A stretch of 64,000 nt of DNA from Ruminococcus sp. (GTDB lineage Bacteria > Bacillota > Clostridia > Oscillospirales > Acutalibacteraceae): assembly GCA_017404665.1 (NCBI GenBank), contig JAFRBX010000076.1:52540-116539 (forward strand). The letters run 5' to 3'. The position numbers were made by a program, and so were the translations under genes. Under the pieces are notes generated by a model that saw only the letters and a list, made by a program, of their open reading frames with translations, had not been told where the DNA came from and ran no database searches. Shown piece by piece: positions 31,971 through 37,246 of this stretch (position 1 is its first letter; each line of letters starts with the position of its first letter).

Positions 31971-33854
31971 CTATCCGATATACTCCACATCCTCCATATC
32001 CAGCTCGCTTGTATTCCTCGCGGGCTTTGCGAGGGGGATAGGGGACTTCGCGAAAAATACGACGTCGCCGAGCGGAACGGAAACATAGTGCCAGCCTTTG
32101 CATAATTCTACTGTGGAAATACCCCCGCCGTGCATGCGTATCTGCGTCATCTTCTCCGGCAGATAAACATTCCGCGCATCCGCGTTCTGTCGATAGATCG
32201 GAGCAATCATTACGCTCTCGCCGACCATCAGCTGATCCTCGATCCGAGCGGCAGTTTCGTCATCCTCATAGTCGAATACAAGCGGACGGAAGAACATCGC
32301 GTCATTTTCGACCGCTTTGAGGAACTCGCTATACAGATAGGGGATCAGGCGGTATCTCAGCCCAATAATATGGCGGAACACCTCGGTATCGCCGAACGCG
32401 AACGCCTCCTGACTGCGCGTGCCGAAGGCGGAGTGGTCGCGCATCAGCGGTGTGAACACAGCGAAGCTCATCCAGCGGATCAGCAGATCGCGCGTACAGT
32501 TGCCGTTGAAGCCGCCGATATCGCTGCCGCTGTACAGAAAGCCGCACATATTCAGCCCGGGCATTTGCTGCAGGCTCTGCAGAATATGGCTCCACCATGC
32601 GTGATTGTCGCCCGTCCATACGCCGCCGTACCGGTGCGCGCCGATGTACGACGCACGCGAGAATAGCAGCGGCGGCTCATCCCTCAGCTCACACAGCGCT
32701 TCATAGGCACTCTGCGTCATCTTGCAGCCGTACAGGTTATGGACGTCATAGTGCCTGAACCGTCCCTCGGGCGTATTGTGGTAAAAGCTTTTGTAGTCAT
32801 CCGGCGCGTTTTGCAGACGCGCAAAGGTATCTCTCGCGCCGAAAAAGCTCAGCGCGTCAAGACGCGAGCCGTCCATTTCTTGGACGGAATGGATCGCGTG
32901 ATCAAGACCCTTTTCGCTGTAGAACAGAGCGGGCTCGTTCATATCGTTCCAGAAGCCCTCGATACCGAGATCGGTCAGGGCTTTATACTGCATGCCGAAC
33001 CAGCGTGACGCTTCGGAATTGAGAAAGTCAGGCAGGACGCTTTTGCCCGGCCATACGCCGACGACATAGTCATTACCGTTCTCATCCTTGCAGAAATATC
33101 CCTTTTCAAGCCCCTCGTCGTAAACGGCATAGCCTTTTTCCTTTTTGACGGCTGCGTCGATGATCGGGATCAGACGTATCCCGCGGTCTTTCATCTTTAG
33201 TGCAAAGCCCTTGAGGTCGGGAAAACGCTCGGGGTGGACGGAAAAGTCCTTGAAGCTGTCCATGTAGTCGATATCCAGATAGATCATATCGATGGGGATG
33301 CCGGCTTGCTGATAGCTGTCGGCGCAGCTTTCGATGTCGTTCTGACACGCGTAGCCCCAGCGGCTCTGACCGAAACCGAACGCCCACAGCGGCGGGATAT
33401 AGCTTTTGCCGATCAAGGAGCGGAATTCGCCGACGATCTCCTTCAGGCTGTCGCCCGTGATGATATACAGATCGAGTGCAAAACGCTCGGGTGTGATCAC
33501 GATCTTGTCGCTGTCGGTATAGCCGAGGTCAAAGGTGATCCTGCCCGGAAGATCAAAGAACGCGCCGAAGCGTTCTTTACCGTCCACGAGGATGAAGTTA
33601 TGCGCACCGTAGACAGAGCGCTTGTCCTCGGTGTGAAAGGGCTCGTCGGTGCAGAAGCTCTCATAGATCCAGCCGCGCTTGTTGATGCCGCGCACGGTCT
33701 CTCCGAGACCGAACACGCGTGTTTCTTTATCCATCTTCAAGGTGAATGACTGTTCAAAAAGCGCAAAGGGCAGGGGAGTCCCTTCGGTTGCCGGCAGCTC
33801 TTTGACGACCGCTCCTGTGTGGATAAAAGGGGAAAAATCGTACCGTTTTATCAT
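31971..33854 (-). CDS. GH31 alpha-glucosidase
   Basis: PPLWAFGFGQSRWGY, LDIDYM, GFWNDMNEP nucleophile, WTGDN, GSDIGGF. Confidence 0.92.
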   Translation of the reverse strand: MIKRYDFSPFIHTGAVVKELPATEGTPLPFALFEQSFTLKMDKETRVFGLGETVRGINKRGWIYESFCTDEPFHTEDKRSVYGAHNFILVDGKERFGAFFDLPGRITFDLGYTDSDKIVITPERFALDLYIITGDSLKEIVGEFRSLIGKSYIPPLWAFGFGQSRWGYACQNDIESCADSYQQAGIPIDMIYLDIDYMDSFKDFSVHPERFPDLKGFALKMKDRGIRLIPIIDAAVKKEKGYAVYDEGLEKGYFCKDENGNDYVVGVWPGKSVLPDFLNSEASRWFGMQYKALTDLGIEGFWNDMNEPALFYSEKGLDHAIHSVQEMDGSRLDALSFFGARDTFARLQNAPDDYKSFYHNTPEGRFRHYDVHNLYGCKMTQSAYEALCELRDEPPLLFSRASYIGAHRYGGVWTGDNHAWWSHILQSLQQMPGLNMCGFLYSGSDIGGFNGNCTRDLLIRWMSFAVFTPLMRDHSAFGTRSQEAFAFGDTEVFRHIIGLRYRLIPYLYSEFLKAVENDAMFFRPLVFDYEDDETAARIEDQLMVGESVMIAPIYRQNADARNVYLPEKMTQIRMHGGGISTVELCKGWHYVSVPLGDVVFFAKSPIPLAKPARNTSELDMEDVEYIG

Positions 33855-34034
33855 ATGATTACCTCGCACTTGATTTTTTTTGCAGATAGTGTATAATATA
33901 TTAGTTAGCGGAGAATGAATTTGCGGTTCCGCACAGCGATCCGTGATTTCTTTGATTAAAGTATATCATTCTTTCACGGGACTTACAATCTTTATTTTGC
34001 GGATTTTGTTGAAATACCGCACCGGAGGCAGAAC

Positions 34035-34895
34035 ATGAGCAACAAGGTTATCATCACATCGGATATCTCCTGCGATCTGAACTGGGATCTGGAGCAGCGC
34101 TACGGCGTCACTACTATCCCGCTCCATATCGTGATCGGCGGCAAAAGCTATGAGGATTGGGTCAATATTACGCCCGAGGAGCTGTACAAGATCTTCTACA
34201 AGACTAAGGAGCTGCCGCACACCACAGCCGGCAGCGTCGGTGAATACACCGATTTTTTCAAGCAGTTCACCGATAAGGGCTATGACGTGGTGCATCTGAG
34301 CCTCGGCTCCAAGCTGAGCGTCACCCATCAGAGCAGCGTTCTTGCCTCTCAGGAATTCCCCGGCAGAGTCTTTTCTGTCGACACCCAGAACCTCAGCTCC
34401 GGTTCGGGTCTGCTGGTCATCAAGGCTTGCGAGCTGCGTGATGAAGGACTGAGCGCAAAGGAGATTGCCGAGAAGGTCACCGCTATGGTGCCGCAGGCGC
34501 ATGCCTCGTTCGTGCTTGACCGTCTCGATTTCATGCACGCGGGCGGCAGATGCTCCGCGATCGCCATGCTGGGGGCGAACCTTTTAAGCCTCAAGCCCTC
34601 GATCGAGGTACATAACGATGACGGCGGTTCGATGGGCGTCGGCAAGAAGTACCGCGGCAAGTATGATAAGGTGCTGCTCCAGTATATGGAGGATACCCTC
34701 AATAAGTATGACAACATCGACACCGACCGTGTATTCATCACCCATGCCGGCGCCAATAAGGAATATGTCGACGCGGTGTACGCGGCGCTGAAGGCGAAGA
34801 ATATCTTCAAGGAGATCCACATCACCCGCGCGTCCTGCACGATCTCCAGCCATTGCGGACCCAATACCCTCGGCGTCCTGTTCATGACAAAATAA
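34035..34895 (+). CDS. DegV family fatty-acid-binding protein
   Basis: TSDISCD, TTAGS, LGSKLS, GGRC, LSLKP, ISSHCGPNTLG. Confidence 0.9.
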   Translation: MSNKVIITSDISCDLNWDLEQRYGVTTIPLHIVIGGKSYEDWVNITPEELYKIFYKTKELPHTTAGSVGEYTDFFKQFTDKGYDVVHLSLGSKLSVTHQSSVLASQEFPGRVFSVDTQNLSSGSGLLVIKACELRDEGLSAKEIAEKVTAMVPQAHASFVLDRLDFMHAGGRCSAIAMLGANLLSLKPSIEVHNDDGGSMGVGKKYRGKYDKVLLQYMEDTLNKYDNIDTDRVFITHAGANKEYVDAVYAALKAKNIFKEIHITRASCTISSHCGPNTLGVLFMTK

Positions 34896-34968: not shown

Positions 34969-35004
34969 AACCACCTGTCAGTACCGATGTACCGACAGGT
35001 GGTT
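34969..35004. terminator. Terminator between convergent degV and RAYT
   Basis: AACCACCTGTC...GACAGGTGGTT. Confidence 0.65.
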
Positions 35005-35190
35005 GTTTGATTTCATATCATATAGTATTTATCCTCCGCCCAGCGAGCAGGGTTGTTGTCGATGTATTGGTATATTTCGCGGTAGTCGCGTTCAGATCGG
35101 ATAACACGATCATAAAAGCGCGGGTGCCAAACAGAATGACCGATACGTTTTGAGATCGTGCCTTTTAGTTGTTGGATAATACGCGATATC

Positions 35191-35213
35191 GTAGGGACGA
35201 GCATTGCTCGTCC
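35191..35213 (+). repeat. GTAG-type REP inside the RAYT ORF
   Basis: GTAG-GGACGAGC-ATT-GCTCGTCC. Confidence 0.8.
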
Positions 35214-35358
35214 GTCGTCGCAGTAAAGAAAAAGCAAAAGATGAATATGGTTGGGCATGATGACGAAGTTGTCTATATGAACCGATGGAGATACAATTTC
35301 AATGTTACGGATGGCGTCCTCTGTGATACGTCCGTATTTTGTCAATATGACATCAGGC

Positions 35359-35381
35359 GGACGACCGATGGTCGTCCCTAC
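35359..35381 (-). repeat. GTAG-type REP inside the RAYT ORF, inverted relative to the first
   Basis: Minus strand GTAG-GGACGACC-ATC-GGTCGTCC. Confidence 0.8.
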
Positions 35382-35502
35382 GGAAATCTTAGATAATAAC
35401 GGTTTCCTGTTCTTGGTACATATCGTGATAAAATACGCCCCATTTGAGTTGTAATCATACTCCGGCATCCGAATTTGCTTTCTTATCTTGTATTCGTTTT
35501 TA

Positions 35503-36216
35503 TTATCCATATATCTTCTCATATATCGTCGTGACCGCCTCGTCGGATATGGTACATCCCAGCCGATACATCGGGACGGTCTCCACCAGTCTGCCGAGCA
35601 TATCGAGCAGCTTTGACAGCTGCGCTTTGTCGGAGGGGAGAACGGTTTGCTGCAGGATCAGCGTCAGCGCTTCGATCGGCGTGACGGCTTTTGCTTTGTT
35701 CTCGGGCGCCTGCGAGAGGAAGACGATCGCTCTGACGGGCGCACAGGTGTTGCAGCCGATGCCGTGCTTGCCGTTCCACGGCGAGCCGTAGATGACGAAT
35801 CTGCCGTCCTTTTCGCGCACCAGCGGCTTGTCGTCGTTGATCATCACGACTTCATCCCCGAAGTGCTTGCGCCACAGGGACGCGTGGGTGCTCTTGCCTG
35901 TGCCCGAAGGCGCGGTGAAGATGATCGCCTCATCCCTGAATCTCAGGCACGAGCAGTGCAGGAAGAAGCCACCTCTGTCGATGATGTAATCGCAGATGAC
36001 GCGCAGGATGGCGACACACTCGCAGATGTACATACTGCTCTGATAACCGTGGATCTCTTCGCCCAGCTCCAGCTCATGACGTATCATTTCCTCCGTCGGC
36101 TCGATGTACAGCTCATATTCCTCGCTGTCGGTCAGATAATCCTGCATATAACGATAAGTTTCTTCATAGCGCGCCTGTACGGCGATATTCATTTCAGCGA
36201 TGCGATAGATGTTCAT
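35503..36216 (-). CDS. HPr-kinase-like P-loop protein (ScmC-like; type usually found with PqqD cassettes)
   Basis: FLHCSCL, FTAPSGTGKSTH, INDDKP, YGSPWNG, AIVFLSQ. Confidence 0.7.
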   Translation of the reverse strand: MNIYRIAEMNIAVQARYEETYRYMQDYLTDSEEYELYIEPTEEMIRHELELGEEIHGYQSSMYICECVAILRVICDYIIDRGGFFLHCSCLRFRDEAIIFTAPSGTGKSTHASLWRKHFGDEVVMINDDKPLVREKDGRFVIYGSPWNGKHGIGCNTCAPVRAIVFLSQAPENKAKAVTPIEALTLILQQTVLPSDKAQLSKLLDMLGRLVETVPMYRLGCTISDEAVTTIYEKIYG

Positions 36217-36235
36217 GAATTTGTCTCCGATTACA

Positions 36236-36907
36236 TTATTTCTTCTTAATTATAACATAAGAATAAATAGTTGCAACCGTTAAAGATACAATCAACGAAA
36301 TAATCATGCCGAAAAGGTAGGCGCTGCTGCGGAATACCAGACCGCATATAACGGTCACGACGCCTGACAGCACCATCGCAATCCCGCCGGCGCGGTTGGC
36401 GATGTACCAGTGCTCGTCGGTATCCATGCTCCAGCTCAGACGCATGCCGACAAAGGAATTTGGCTTTGTTTTCGGCATGATGTTGCCGATGACGATGAAC
36501 ATGATCCCGATGATCGTCGCGATGATGGGGAAGATGACGTTTTCCGTATTCTTCATCATTTCGGGATTTTTCATCAGGAACAGCACCATCACGCACAGCG
36601 CGTTGTATAGGACAAGCATCGACAGGAGAACAGTGTCGATGATATCGAAGTTCCGCTCGGTGCGGCTGTTTTCGTCGGTAGAGGAACGCAATGCGAATTT
36701 TCTGATGCATACATATACAAGATAAACGACCAGACAGAATGCCGGAAGGAGAAAGGCTTCATACTTGGAGCCGTAGCGATTGGGTGTTCCGTCAGCGCCG
36801 AAATGTGCCGCCACGGTGTCGGGCAGGAAGAAGAATACGGCGATGGATGTGTAGACGACGGGCAATACTGCCGCGAGAAATATCAAGATTTGCTTGAATC
36901 TTTTCAT
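36236..36907 (-). CDS. sdpI: SdpI/DUF1648 family membrane immunity protein
   Basis: LPDTVAAHFGADGTPNRYGSK, GNIMPKTKPNSFVGMR...W..AN. Confidence 0.8.
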   Translation of the reverse strand: MKRFKQILIFLAAVLPVVYTSIAVFFFLPDTVAAHFGADGTPNRYGSKYEAFLLPAFCLVVYLVYVCIRKFALRSSTDENSRTERNFDIIDTVLLSMLVLYNALCVMVLFLMKNPEMMKNTENVIFPIIATIIGIMFIVIGNIMPKTKPNSFVGMRLSWSMDTDEHWYIANRAGGIAMVLSGVVTVICGLVFRSSAYLFGMIISLIVSLTVATIYSYVIIKKK

Positions 36908-36988
36908 AATAATACAATACCTCCTATTAACATTATCTGAAAGAATAAAATTTGTTTGAGTTTATGAGAAAGAAATAGGCACACGTGC

Positions 36989-37246
36989 CTAAAATTGCTT
37001 GAGCCACAGGATCAGTTCGTCAAATAATGAAGCGTTGAGCTCATAGTAGACAAAGTTCTTTTCCTTGCTTTCTATCAGCAGATCGCTCTCCTTGAGCAGC
37101 TTCAGGTGATAGCTCAGCTTCTGCGGTGAAATGCCCAGCGCTTCGGCGATCTCACCCGCAGACATGCGGTAATTCTTCTTGATCAGCGTCAGGATATCTC
37201 TGCGCTGTGGGTCGGACAGGGTCTTCAAGGTTTTACCCAATGACAT
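36989..37246 (-). CDS. sdpR: ArsR/SdpR family autorepressor
   Basis: LKTLSDPQRRDIL, MSAGEIA, LSYHLKLLK, KEKNFVYYELN; directly upstream of sdpI. Confidence 0.8.
   Translation of the reverse strand: MSLGKTLKTLSDPQRRDILTLIKKNYRMSAGEIAEALGISPQKLSYHLKLLKESDLLIESKEKNFVYYELNASLFDELILWLKQF

Follow-up and report, generated by a model that had tools for sequence, protein, structure and literature searches.

In a gut Clostridium, a gene for a RAYT, a TnpAREP-like HUH/Tyr enzyme, carries two GTAG-tagged palindromes of the REP kind inside its own open reading frame, inverted relative to each other and in frame. The gene lies within the 64-kb stretch of DNA that we analyzed (the window). This in-frame pair is real, and it is conserved at the level of the DNA. 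Among homologous genes, constraint acts on the DNA of both hairpins, their position is conserved, and the two arms of the doublet evolve in concert. The hairpin of the window's gene is identical in sequence to a family of REPs that is dispersed outside of genes. Our preferred reading, which we consider quite probable, is that the enzyme is a domesticated endonuclease for single-stranded DNA (ssDNA), of the RAYT/TnpAREP kind, whose cognate REP pair has been internalized in frame.

Table 1. The RAYT gene, its internal REPs, and a nearby palindrome (positions in the window).
Feature	Position	Strand	Details
RAYT / TnpAREP-like HUH-Y1 gene	35013..35510	-	165 aa from the ATG at 35510
REP 1 (hp1)	35359..35381	-	coding strand GTAG-GGACGACC-ATC-GGTCGTCC; translated VGTTIGRP (V48-P55)
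Spacer of the inverted doublet, 145 nt	35214..35358	-	codes for P56-D103, including the HUH strand; single-copy depth in metagenomes
HUH codons H92-I93-H94	35241..35249	-	coding strand CATATTCAT; from the sequence and ORF translation
REP 2 (hp2)	35191..35213	+	template strand GTAG-GGACGAGC-ATT-GCTCGTCC; translated GRAMLVPT (G104-T111)
Presumed catalytic Tyr codon, Y153 in YIDNNP	35064..35066	-	aligned to YIYINP of 4ER8
16-bp palindrome, terminator-like, between the convergent DegV and RAYT genes	34969..35004	.	repeat search

The initial annotation had identified the gene as a RAYT, and fold and motifs agree, with curated profiles scoring slightly under their cut-offs. NCBIfam NF047646 (REP_Tyr_transpos) is the best family by far (68 bits with E 7.6e-19, where the cut-off is 80; IS200 has 16 bits). 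Pfam PF01797 (Y1_Tnp) gives 20.4 bits, against a gathering cut-off of 23, and several homologues have a precomputed match to it. The best relative in PDB by profile is 4ER8, the E. coli TnpAREP bound to a REP (E 2.4e-9). Foldseek with the AF2 model of the window protein (pLDDT 78) also found 4ER8 (E 3.6e-8, TM 0.61), as well as the TnpA proteins of ISDra2, IS608, and IS200 (E 1e-6 to 1e-4). In an alignment of 30 homologues, H92-I-H94, which lies within PNHIH and on strand 92-99 of the model, is invariant or nearly so. Y153 (in helix 144-156) is invariant and is predicted to be the catalytic tyrosine. Its context, YIDNNP, contains the Y---NP motif that the motif table of PMC6006769 gives for class 2 TnpAY1. 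Overall, the classification as a HUH/Tyr enzyme holds, with the RAYT label resting on fold and motifs.

The motifs of the protein match those of subclass 2.4 (Quentin et al. 2018; group 4 of Bertels). Of the signature NH[IFV]H, WQ, YIxNNP, both NHIH and YIDNNP are present, with WH rather than WQ in the window protein and in its orthologue at locus L201. Nearly all of the homologues, and E. coli, have W-Q; this site is a GTAG-contacting position.

Taken at its longest, the ORF would begin at 35522 (169 aa; 35013..35522, minus strand), and the start at 35510 is likelier; the protein P0001 has 165 aa. The 5' end of the gene overlaps the stop (35503) of an upstream ScmC-like ORF. The gene order HTH-SdpI-ScmC-RAYT-DegV-GH31 is shared with L201 (72% identity), and ScmC-RAYT-DegV is shared with L206. 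In metagenomes, the gene has the depth of a single-copy gene. By synteny and depth, then, it is single-copy, vertically inherited, and housekeeping-like. The terminator-like palindrome in Table 1 lacks GTAG and is not a REP.

Each internal hairpin consists of a GTAG tag, an 8-bp stem, and a 3-nt loop. The sequence at 35191-35213 of the plus strand is GTAGGGACGAGCATTGCTCGTCC; at 35359-35381 it is GGACGACCGATGGTCGTCCCTAC, with the reverse complement GTAGGGACGACCATCGGTCGTCC. (The REP of the window's gene is of the GTAGGGACGA type.) On the coding strand, hp1 starts 123 nt 5' of the M-P-N-H-I-H codons, and hp2 reads as a hairpin and then CTAC. The initial annotation had described this inverted pair with its gap of 145 nt. 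The pair is evident in the sequence itself and in a repeat search, which gave 25-nt inverted arms (35190-35214 and 35358-35382) that are 88% complementary. Translation of the ORF bore out that the two peptides flank the HUH motif. The window has exactly two instances of GTAG with a perfect 8-bp stem, and both are within the RAYT gene. The chance expectation for 64 kb is a mean of 0.04, and none of 300 first-order Markov simulations had two or more. Because there are no further GTAG-REPs elsewhere in the 64-kb window, the gene's flanks included, the annotation was also right that the gene lacks flanking copies.

In the model, the hp1 peptide forms the tip of a beta-hairpin whose strands are 44-47 and 57-60. 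The hp2 peptide is the loop between the HUH strand and helix 112-127, and it aligns with a 6-residue gap in E. coli TnpAREP. Both are loops of lower confidence. Folded as ssRNA or ssDNA, hp1 is predicted to pair with hp2 around the spacer.

Of 74 homologous genes, drawn from 80 genome loci, at least 51 have the pair at the same two protein loops. This is a lower bound because our regular expressions for HUH and beta1 fail at about 10 of the 80 loci, and several of these have the pair (L014, L033, L038, L044, and L064). In these homologues, the GTAG-hairpin is at about -123 nt from the HUH codons, and the end of the hairpin-CTAC is at about +62 to +98 nt. The position and frame of hp1 are the same in 50 of the 51 genes, while the hp2 loop varies in offset and length. 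There are 40 distinct stems among the 51 genes; they vary widely from gene to gene, but the two stems of one gene are almost the same. The distance between hp1 and hp2 averages 1.4 within a gene, as against 8.7 between genes (0 of 10000 permutations were as low). For example, both REPs of the L201 orthologue have changed in concert to GTAGGGACGACCAATGGTCGTCC, which is read as VGTTNGRP and GRPLVVPT. REP sequence also tracks the divergence of the proteins (Mantel r 0.19, which none of 2000 permutations reached).

The initial annotation had proposed a check for compensatory changes that keep the hairpins despite variation in the peptides, and the result among the homologues was strongly positive. 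Of the stem positions, 95% are paired, versus 49% when codons are resampled synonymously (P<0.01 for 90% of 102 hairpins). Between the window gene and L001 (62% amino acid identity), third codon positions are identical at 12 of 13 sites in the hairpins and at 30 of 81 elsewhere (p=2e-4). Some genes read the same DNA in other frames (hp1 in 1 of 51, the 3' CTAC in 5 of 51). Eight residues are nearly invariant in the protein alignment (V48, G49, R54, P55, G104, R105, P110, and T111), and these are precisely what GTAGG, CG.CC, and CCTAC encode. The other residues of the hairpin peptides covary as base pairing demands (A/L to P/V, S/T). Since pairing is kept at synonymous sites and in other frames, and the amino acids covary, the constraint is on the DNA. 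Where the stems of hp1 and hp2 differ, the differences are compensated inside each hairpin. Both-sided changes were seen in 6 of 8 stem pairs, in hairpin sets that were chosen by a hairpin detector, which inflates their value of "100% paired." Such individual compensation points to selection on each hairpin rather than to simple copying.

The exact REP is also dispersed outside of genes: all 104 of its metagenome matches lay outside RAYT ORFs. Many of these matches form +/- doublets (median gap of 29 nt), the commonest polarity among extragenic doublets. In the same metagenome samples, segments with the REP have 4-9 times the depth of the RAYT gene. L201, the syntenic orthologue, has extragenic copies flanking the gene, and L202 also has extragenic copies. 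In homologues without internal REPs, the same pair flanks the gene, and we found intermediates between the two arrangements. (We scanned the flanks with a general GTAGG-plus-hairpin pattern; a gene's own pattern with at most one mismatch undercounts.) "Double-foot" REPs are present at L080 and L049. The homologues have a scattered distribution that includes Cyanobacteria, Bacteroidetes, and Chloroflexi (L076, L079, L067, and L080). The gene is thus tied to a cognate family of GTAG-tagged REPs, with extragenic copies in metagenomes and in close relatives and none in the 64-kb window.

We propose that both hairpins are the enzyme's cognate REPs. Each is a short perfect palindrome with a GTAG tag, of the type that is recognized as folded ssDNA in a strand-specific manner. 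RAYT genes normally have such a REP pair on their flanks (a "REPtron"), and here it sits inside the ORF, in frame. It occupies two loops that are shorter in E. coli TnpAREP, one at the beta-hairpin tip that follows beta1 and the other behind the HUH strand. On this reading, VGTTIGRP and GRAMLVPT are passengers, and conservation is of the DNA, namely of GTAG and a pairing stem, on the coding strand for hp1 and on the template strand for hp2. By analogy with the enzymes of E. coli, S. maltophilia, and Marinomonas, which belong to other groups, the enzyme may bind, and possibly nick, the coding strand of hp1 and the template strand of hp2 when these are single-stranded. The initial annotation's suggestion of self-binding is reasonable on this analogy, and self-regulation, which it had also raised, is plausible. 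Keeping the cognate pair within the gene would hold the enzyme's specificity and the REP family together.

The pair might have no function in cis at all. REPs could have entered two permissive loops of an ancestral gene on a single occasion and stayed as passive hitch-hikers, homogenized with each other and with genomic REPs by gene conversion or REP turnover. We consider this possible but doubtful. Quentin et al. read in-frame REPs as insertions in peripheral extensions with little effect on the protein (PMC6006769). Homologues without REPs have short turns at the same two sites, REPs have undergone in-frame tandem duplication (L004, L048, and L060), and an orthologous intergenic site varies in whether it has a REP. 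Also, 19 of the 51 pairs are identical including the loop bases, which are not needed for pairing; gene conversion without a selected function in cis could be the source of this concerted evolution, loops included. However, loop bases of small perfect REPs can be essential for recognition (PMC8266576). The pair lies at the same codons in genes down to about 35% identity, and the genome of the window has no other REP within 64 kb to act as a conversion donor, yet it retained the pair. The individual compensation of the hp1 and hp2 stems is also contrary to passive copying.

Conversely, the internal doublet might be a functional cis-element on which the enzyme acts, making the gene a minimal, self-contained REPtron with an enzyme that would bind or nick the DNA that encodes it. 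It could serve autoregulation, or it could be a protected source copy that re-seeds and homogenizes the extragenic doublets. We offer this only tentatively and think it rather unlikely. If true, it would explain how the pair persists with no further REP close by. It would also mean that the enzyme's own DNA substrate writes two of its loops, and the protein, hp1, hp2, and the genomic REPs would co-evolve as one unit of specificity.

An action through RNA is improbable. Here, the hairpins, or a long duplex of hp1 with hp2, would control the translation or decay of the RAYT mRNA (e.g., through RNase III or ribosome stalling) and so keep the enzyme scarce. In IS200, an mRNA hairpin keeps the enzyme scarce. 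The RNA of 35180-35392 (minus strand) does fold with hp1 paired to hp2 (-58.7 kcal/mol, z = -2.9), and Di Nocera et al. argue that many REPs work as RNA. But GTAG is conserved on opposite strands for hp1 and hp2. All 12 G.T wobbles are on the GTAG strand (6 per hairpin), so those of hp2 would be A.C mismatches in the mRNA. The differences between hp1 and hp2 keep the local hairpins and break the long duplex, and we rejected the duplex as the selected structure because these differences are compensated inside each hairpin. Furthermore, in some homologues this REP pair is not within the ORF, and copies of the same sequence are scattered between genes in both orientations. None of the RNA runs that we searched contained the gene.

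The initial annotation had also suggested that the HUH-coding segment might be excised. The enzyme would cut at both REPs and remove or circularize a 191-bp unit, which would inactivate the gene (a phase switch) or launch a REPIN-like element. The inverted polarity is that of the commonest extragenic doublets, and a REPIN-type fold is predicted for the ssDNA. We searched Logan contigs of four metagenome runs (X1-X4) and found no REP-to-REP deletion or circle junction in these assembled contigs, which are blind to rare events. The spacer has the same depth as the gene, so the unit is not amplified. Its length of 191 bp is not divisible by 3, which would make the loss irreversible, yet the intact gene is conserved in synteny. 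Some apparent skips of about 142 nt resembled excisions. Where the intervening letters are available, these joints have 19-28 unrelated nt between the REPs, in short contigs of other depths, and they are therefore REP doublets at other loci. The only variant without HUH that we found (P0035, at L205) is not bounded by REPs: it has an internal deletion of 34 nt with hp1 intact and hp2 decayed, so we rejected it as a natural excision product. (That deletion may be an assembly error.) Overall, excision is very unlikely. Finally, we rejected the reading in which the two peptides are functional loops with incidental palindromes, or in which the palindromes arose by chance. The eight nearly invariant residues would favor it, but they simply translate the conserved DNA, and synonymous resampling, the frame changes, the covariation of the other residues, the third-position comparison with L001, and the chance expectation all contradict it.

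Genes of this clade carry the sequence of their own substrate (the predicted cognate REPs), so hundreds of homologues yield matched enzyme/REP pairs in about 0.5 kb each. The 40 stems in 51 genes are a ready data set for the recognition code between RAYTs and REPs and for choosing pairs for work in vitro. They also show cleanly, in a natural setting, how a constraint on DNA structure can dictate protein sequence. The resulting covariation, both from A/L to P/V and of two distant loops with each other, is unrelated to contacts in three dimensions, which is a caveat for coevolution-based contact prediction. Moreover, gut and rumen Clostridia abound in GTAG-REP/RAYT systems, which have mostly been studied in Proteobacteria.

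Among known systems, IS200/IS605 elements share the catalytic fold, and their TnpA recognizes folded ssDNA hairpins that border the gene. However, the ends of these elements are on one strand and outside the ORF, and the elements are mobile and multicopy, whereas the gene described here is syntenic and single-copy. The best match in sequence and fold is the E. coli REPtron (TnpAREP, also RayT or YafM, with its REP/BIME; 4ER8), which shares HUH, one catalytic Tyr, Y---NP, GTAG at the 5' foot of the hairpin, and inverted REPs around the gene. In contrast, the palindromes of the E. coli REPs are long and bulged and lie outside the ORF, and E. coli TnpAREP belongs to subclass 2.2 and has neither loop insertion. 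Strand-specific recognition of REPs as ssDNA and the co-evolution of TnpAREP with REP have been published, with strand-specific binding and cleavage shown for group 2 and 3 enzymes only (PMC8266576).

In the REPIN-RAYT systems of Pseudomonas and Enterobacteria (groups 2 and 3; Bertels & Rainey 2011), the REPs are also inverted and are predicted to form a single long hairpin as a single strand, and the cognate RAYT is likewise single-copy and vertically inherited. According to Bertels and Rainey, no RAYT groups other than 2 and 3 have an association with REPINs. REPINs are extragenic, with short non-coding spacers and tens to hundreds of copies, whereas the doublet in the window is a single-copy unit whose two REPs are separated by 145 nt of coding sequence. 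The initial annotation's REPIN-like unit thus stands as a geometry (an inverted doublet around the HUH codons that can fold into a long hairpin) but not as a REPIN. Palindromic repeats that are tolerated in frame in protein loops are also known from REPs in other proteins (Di Nocera et al. 2013, PMC3733652) and from Rickettsia palindromic elements (RPEs). Those are scattered in unrelated genes, whereas here the host gene appears to encode the recognizing enzyme and the sites are conserved across the family.

In-frame REPs in tnpAREP genes of subclass 2.4 have already been described by Quentin, Siguier, Chandler & Fichant 2018, BMC Genomics 19:475 (PMC6006769). As presented there, subclass 2.4 resembles our genes in its signature, in GTAG REPs inside the ORF that leave the frame intact, in the variable insertion that follows HUH in the beta3-alphaC loop (where hp2 lies), and in "double-foot" REPs in some members, low copy number, and scattered phyla. 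Here and in most of the Clostridia relatives, by comparison with that account, there is a fixed inverted pair, one REP at the tip of a beta-hairpin before HUH and one after it; the two REPs evolve in concert, and the window lacks flanking REPs. The pair, its covariation, and the constraint at synonymous sites are not described in the main text of PMC6006769, and relative to that text, a conserved pair around HUH that evolves in concert, in Clostridia, may be the new element.

The RAYT protein of the window carries, besides its HUH and YIDNNP motifs, a beta1-like YFITICT segment and a conserved tryptophan (W132). It scores just below the cut-offs of two curated profiles (NCBIfam REP_Tyr_transpos, 68 bits against 80, E 7.6e-19; Pfam Y1_Tnp, 20.4 against 23), which nevertheless point to one family. 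The sole PDB sequence matched by a profile of 30 homologues was E. coli TnpAREP bound to REP (4ER8, E 2.4e-9). Foldseek with the AlphaFold model (pLDDT 78, pTM 0.73) also gave 4ER8 as the best hit (E 3.6e-8, TM 0.61), ahead of the transposases of ISDra2, IS608 and IS200. The window protein and its orthologue at locus L201 have W-H (H133 codon, 35127-35129) in place of the W-Q shared by the family and E. coli TnpAREP; in the E. coli enzyme, that Gln touches GTAG.

Features of the RAYT locus (window coordinates unless a homologous locus is named)
Feature	Position	Strand	Remarks
Conserved RAYT neighbourhood	35503-37246 and 31971-34895; L201 1561-6944; L206	- (35503-37246)	gene order
16-bp palindrome AACCACCTGTCAGTAC/GTACCGACAGGTGGTT, then TTTG	34969-35004		between convergent DegV and RAYT; not a REP
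RAYT ORF	35013-35522	-	169 aa, longest ORF
P0001, database protein of the window RAYT	starts at ATG 35510	-	165 aa
YIDNNP motif with Y153	35064-35066 (Y153 codon)	-	in RAYT ORF
REP 2	35191-35213	+	GTAGGGACGAGCATTGCTCGTCC; translated G104-T111 (GRAMLVPT), after HUH
HUH motif PNHIH, H92/H94	35241-35249	-	in RAYT ORF
REP 1	35359-35381	-	reverse complement GTAGGGACGACCATCGGTCGTCC; translated V48-P55 (VGTTIGRP), before HUH

The initial annotation held that this gene contains an inverted pair of GTAG-tagged hairpins, translated on either side of the HUH motif, and that none flank it. Sequence and translation confirm the pair, 145 nt apart. In each, GTAG precedes a hairpin with a perfect 8-bp stem and a loop of 3 nt, and the one position at which the stems differ is compensated in both. 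There are exactly two GTAG-plus-8-bp hairpins in the 64-kb window, both within the RAYT gene (Markov-1 simulations gave a mean of 0.04, and 0 of 300 reached two), and no further GTAG-REP occurs elsewhere in the window, even with loose matches included. The annotation's interpretation is supported in part: the two hairpins are REPs of the enzyme itself, with the geometry of a REPIN-like unit. The enzyme may bind them within its own gene, while self-excision is without support.

With one genome scanned per species, 80 loci with homologues were obtained (34-63% identity), mostly in MAGs of Oscillospiraceae, Acutalibacteraceae and other Clostridia, with a few Chloroflexi, one Synergistaceae, one Microcoleus and one Flavobacterium. 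The window-type arrangement is present in 51 of the 74 homologous genes recognised by motif search: a GTAG-hairpin lies 5' of the HUH codons (modal offset -123 nt) and a hairpin-CTAC lies 3' of them, with its end at +62 to +98 nt in the majority. In 50 of the 51 genes the GTAG of REP 1 is translated in the frame GTA-GGN (Val-Gly); for the CTAC of REP 2, 46 genes use ..CCT-ACN (Pro-Thr) and five use another frame (..PPLQ). For example, REP 2 of L036, L042 and L043 gives ..PPLQ instead of ..PT from the same REP DNA, and L055 (10124) and L070 (10134) have other-frame readings at the same protein site, such as RRGAQCAP rather than VGA..RP. Stems are very unlike between genes (40 distinct 5' arms; stem/loop geometries of 8/3, 9/4, 8/4, 8/6 and 7/8). 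The two hairpins of a single gene, however, are almost alike: the mean sequence distance between REP 1 and REP 2 is 1.4 within genes versus 8.7 between genes (0 of 10,000 permutations were as low), and 19 pairs are identical.

In homologues without internal REPs, the gene is often flanked by the same pair (L051, L061, L077, L078). There are also intermediates, with the 5' REP just before the start and the 3' REP internal (L067, L074, L009, L007) or the 5' REP internal and the 3' REP just past the stop (L018, L073). The conserved feature is therefore a pair of inverted REPs that encloses the catalytic core, whether from within the ORF or from outside it. Both peptides fall in lower-confidence regions of the model: V48-P55 forms the tip of a beta-hairpin after beta1 (strands 44-47 and 57-60), and G104-T111 lies in the coil joining the HUH strand (92-99) to helix 112-127. 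The first site is a turn of 2-4 residues in REP-less homologues and the second aligns to a 6-residue gap in E. coli TnpAREP; relative to these proteins, the REPs are loop insertions. In-frame tandem duplications of intragenic REPs (L004 10205-10744, L048 8586-8644, L060 3207-3601; such as GRPPEIGRPPEI and GRAMHAPTGRAMRAPT, or a doubled REP 1 with 33 nt between the copies) suggest slippage or REP-mediated duplication within the ORF. Five loci (L013, L025, L028, L073, L078) have two RAYT paralogues 1-5 kb apart whose REP type is different or absent, which fits one REP family per enzyme.

Four tests indicate that the constraint on the hairpins acts on DNA rather than on protein. When synonymous codons were resampled with the peptides kept, 49% of stem positions were paired versus 95% observed (P < 0.01 for 90% of 102 hairpins). 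Between the window gene and its L001 homologue (62% amino acid identity), residues that are identical also share their third codon base in 12 of 13 cases within hairpins versus 30 of 81 outside (Fisher p = 2e-4). In a set of 29 distinct 8/3 hairpins, changes on both sides were seen at six of the eight stem pairs (55 cells) and the covariation score is 0.72 versus 0.17 when shuffled; these were chosen by a hairpin detector, so that "100% paired" is partly by construction. In the protein alignment, GRAMLVPT, GRPMVAPT, GRAMPAPT, GRSMTVPT and GRPLVVPT are translations of different stems, all of which pair. The compensatory change despite peptide variation that the initial annotation had proposed looking for is thus present: stems and peptides differ and pairing is kept.

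Closer relatives place the gene in a conserved setting. Syntenic orthologues are found at L201 (P0018, 72% identity), with the window's order of HTH, SdpI, ScmC-like, RAYT, DegV and GH31 genes, and at L206 (P0010), with ScmC, RAYT and DegV; therefore, the RAYT gene is a stable resident of the chromosome. The upstream neighbours are an ArsR-like HTH protein, an SdpI-DUF1648 membrane protein and a ScmC-like P-loop ORF (PF27840 matches its orthologue; our Pfam scan gave none). Because the start of RAYT and the stop of the ScmC-like ORF overlap, the genes are probably co-transcribed, and the palindrome beyond the RAYT stop is probably a bidirectional terminator. When the DNA of five genes is aligned, the first REP stands out as an invariant island while the gene around it diverges. 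Both REPs of L201 read GTAGGGACGACCAATGGTCGTCC, with both arms, loop included, altered in concert relative to the window; the second REP stem of L202 is GGACGGTC/GACCGTCC, and the second REP of L206 has a G.T wobble on its GTAG strand, an A.C mismatch in the mRNA.

Fold predictions for a 213-nt segment, both as RNA and as DNA, join REP 1 to REP 2 and enclose the HUH-coding spacer (z -2.9 and -2.6). In genes whose REP stems differ, 5'-arm and 3'-arm changes are matched in number (3/3, 6/5, 2/2, 2/2, 6/6); each hairpin remains paired, whereas the long duplex would break. These comparative data favour local hairpins over the long duplex. G.T wobbles fall on the GTAG-bearing strand in 12 of 12 cases, six per hairpin though the strands are opposite; therefore, REP 2 has A.C mismatches in the mRNA. 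The wobbles share a position within each REP type and are not independent events. TnpAREP enzymes of other groups recognize folded ssDNA in a strand-specific manner (PMC8266576), with which local pairing and GTAG-strand wobbles agree; an mRNA element fits less well.

Excision of the HUH segment as a REPIN-like unit, also raised by the initial annotation, has a low probability: in contigs from four gut-metagenome runs, which cannot show rare events, spacer depth equals gene depth, and all REP-to-REP joints with printed intervening letters (not given for three) contain 19-28 unrelated nt, so those joints belong to another locus. The only HUH-less homologue, L205 (3001-3456, P0035), has an internal deletion of ~34 nt and a degenerated second REP, and is a pseudogene unless its long-read contig was misassembled; we rejected it as an excision product because the deletion is not REP-bounded.

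The window hairpins belong to a dispersed REP family. The exact pattern occurs in at least 120 stretches of metagenome contigs. Among the 80 metagenome loci listed, all 104 REP matches lie outside RAYT ORFs; the listed matches are rarer in long ORFs (60% versus 86% for random positions), and many are arranged as +/- doublets with a spacing of 30-130 nt, frequently beside other REP variants. In the four runs, word depth over the two REPs is 4-9 times that over the rest of the gene, and many short contigs match REPs only. Gene contigs of two runs (X2, X3) break exactly at both REPs (window 35182-35386), which shows that the intragenic REPs behave like repeats in metagenome assembly graphs. When all loci are taken together, the density of REPs within RAYT ORFs is at least 8-fold that found elsewhere, and extragenic neighbours mostly have the +/- polarity of the intragenic pair (median gap 29 nt). 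Extragenic copies lie within a few kb in L201 and L202. Between HTH and SdpI, L201 has a REP doublet (1819-1948; about 64 extra nt or more) and the window has none (36908-36988), a REP presence/absence polymorphism between related species. A Synergistaceae contig has a dense array (L026 2466-5504; 17 REPs over 20 kb, some of them in a series with a 136-nt period), and L021 (2752-2853) and L115 (1450-1550) have REP triplets with a 39-40-nt period.

Quentin, Siguier, Chandler and Fichant (2018) recognise several subclasses of TnpAY1 proteins. One of these, subclass 2.4, corresponds to Bertels' group 4; it is marked by NH[IFV]H, WQ and YIxNNP and is spread over "Cyanobacteria, Bacteroidetes and various phyla." For this subclass the paper already describes REPs inserted in frame in the gene, and long and "double foot" REPs are on record too (PMC6006769). 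In the text of that paper (Fig. S10 apart), and in Bertels et al. 2017, Di Nocera et al. 2013, Corneloup et al. 2021 and later Bertels and Rainey, we found no mention of a further REP that precedes HUH at a fixed beta-hairpin tip, of the geometry of an inverted pair, of two arms evolving in concert, of synonymous-site and frame evidence, or of the system being abundant in Clostridia. Some architectural detail of the window gene is possibly new. The window protein shares the subclass 2.4 signature, except that WH replaces WQ, and L080 and L049 also have double-foot REPs; therefore, the core of the finding is already published (PMC6006769).
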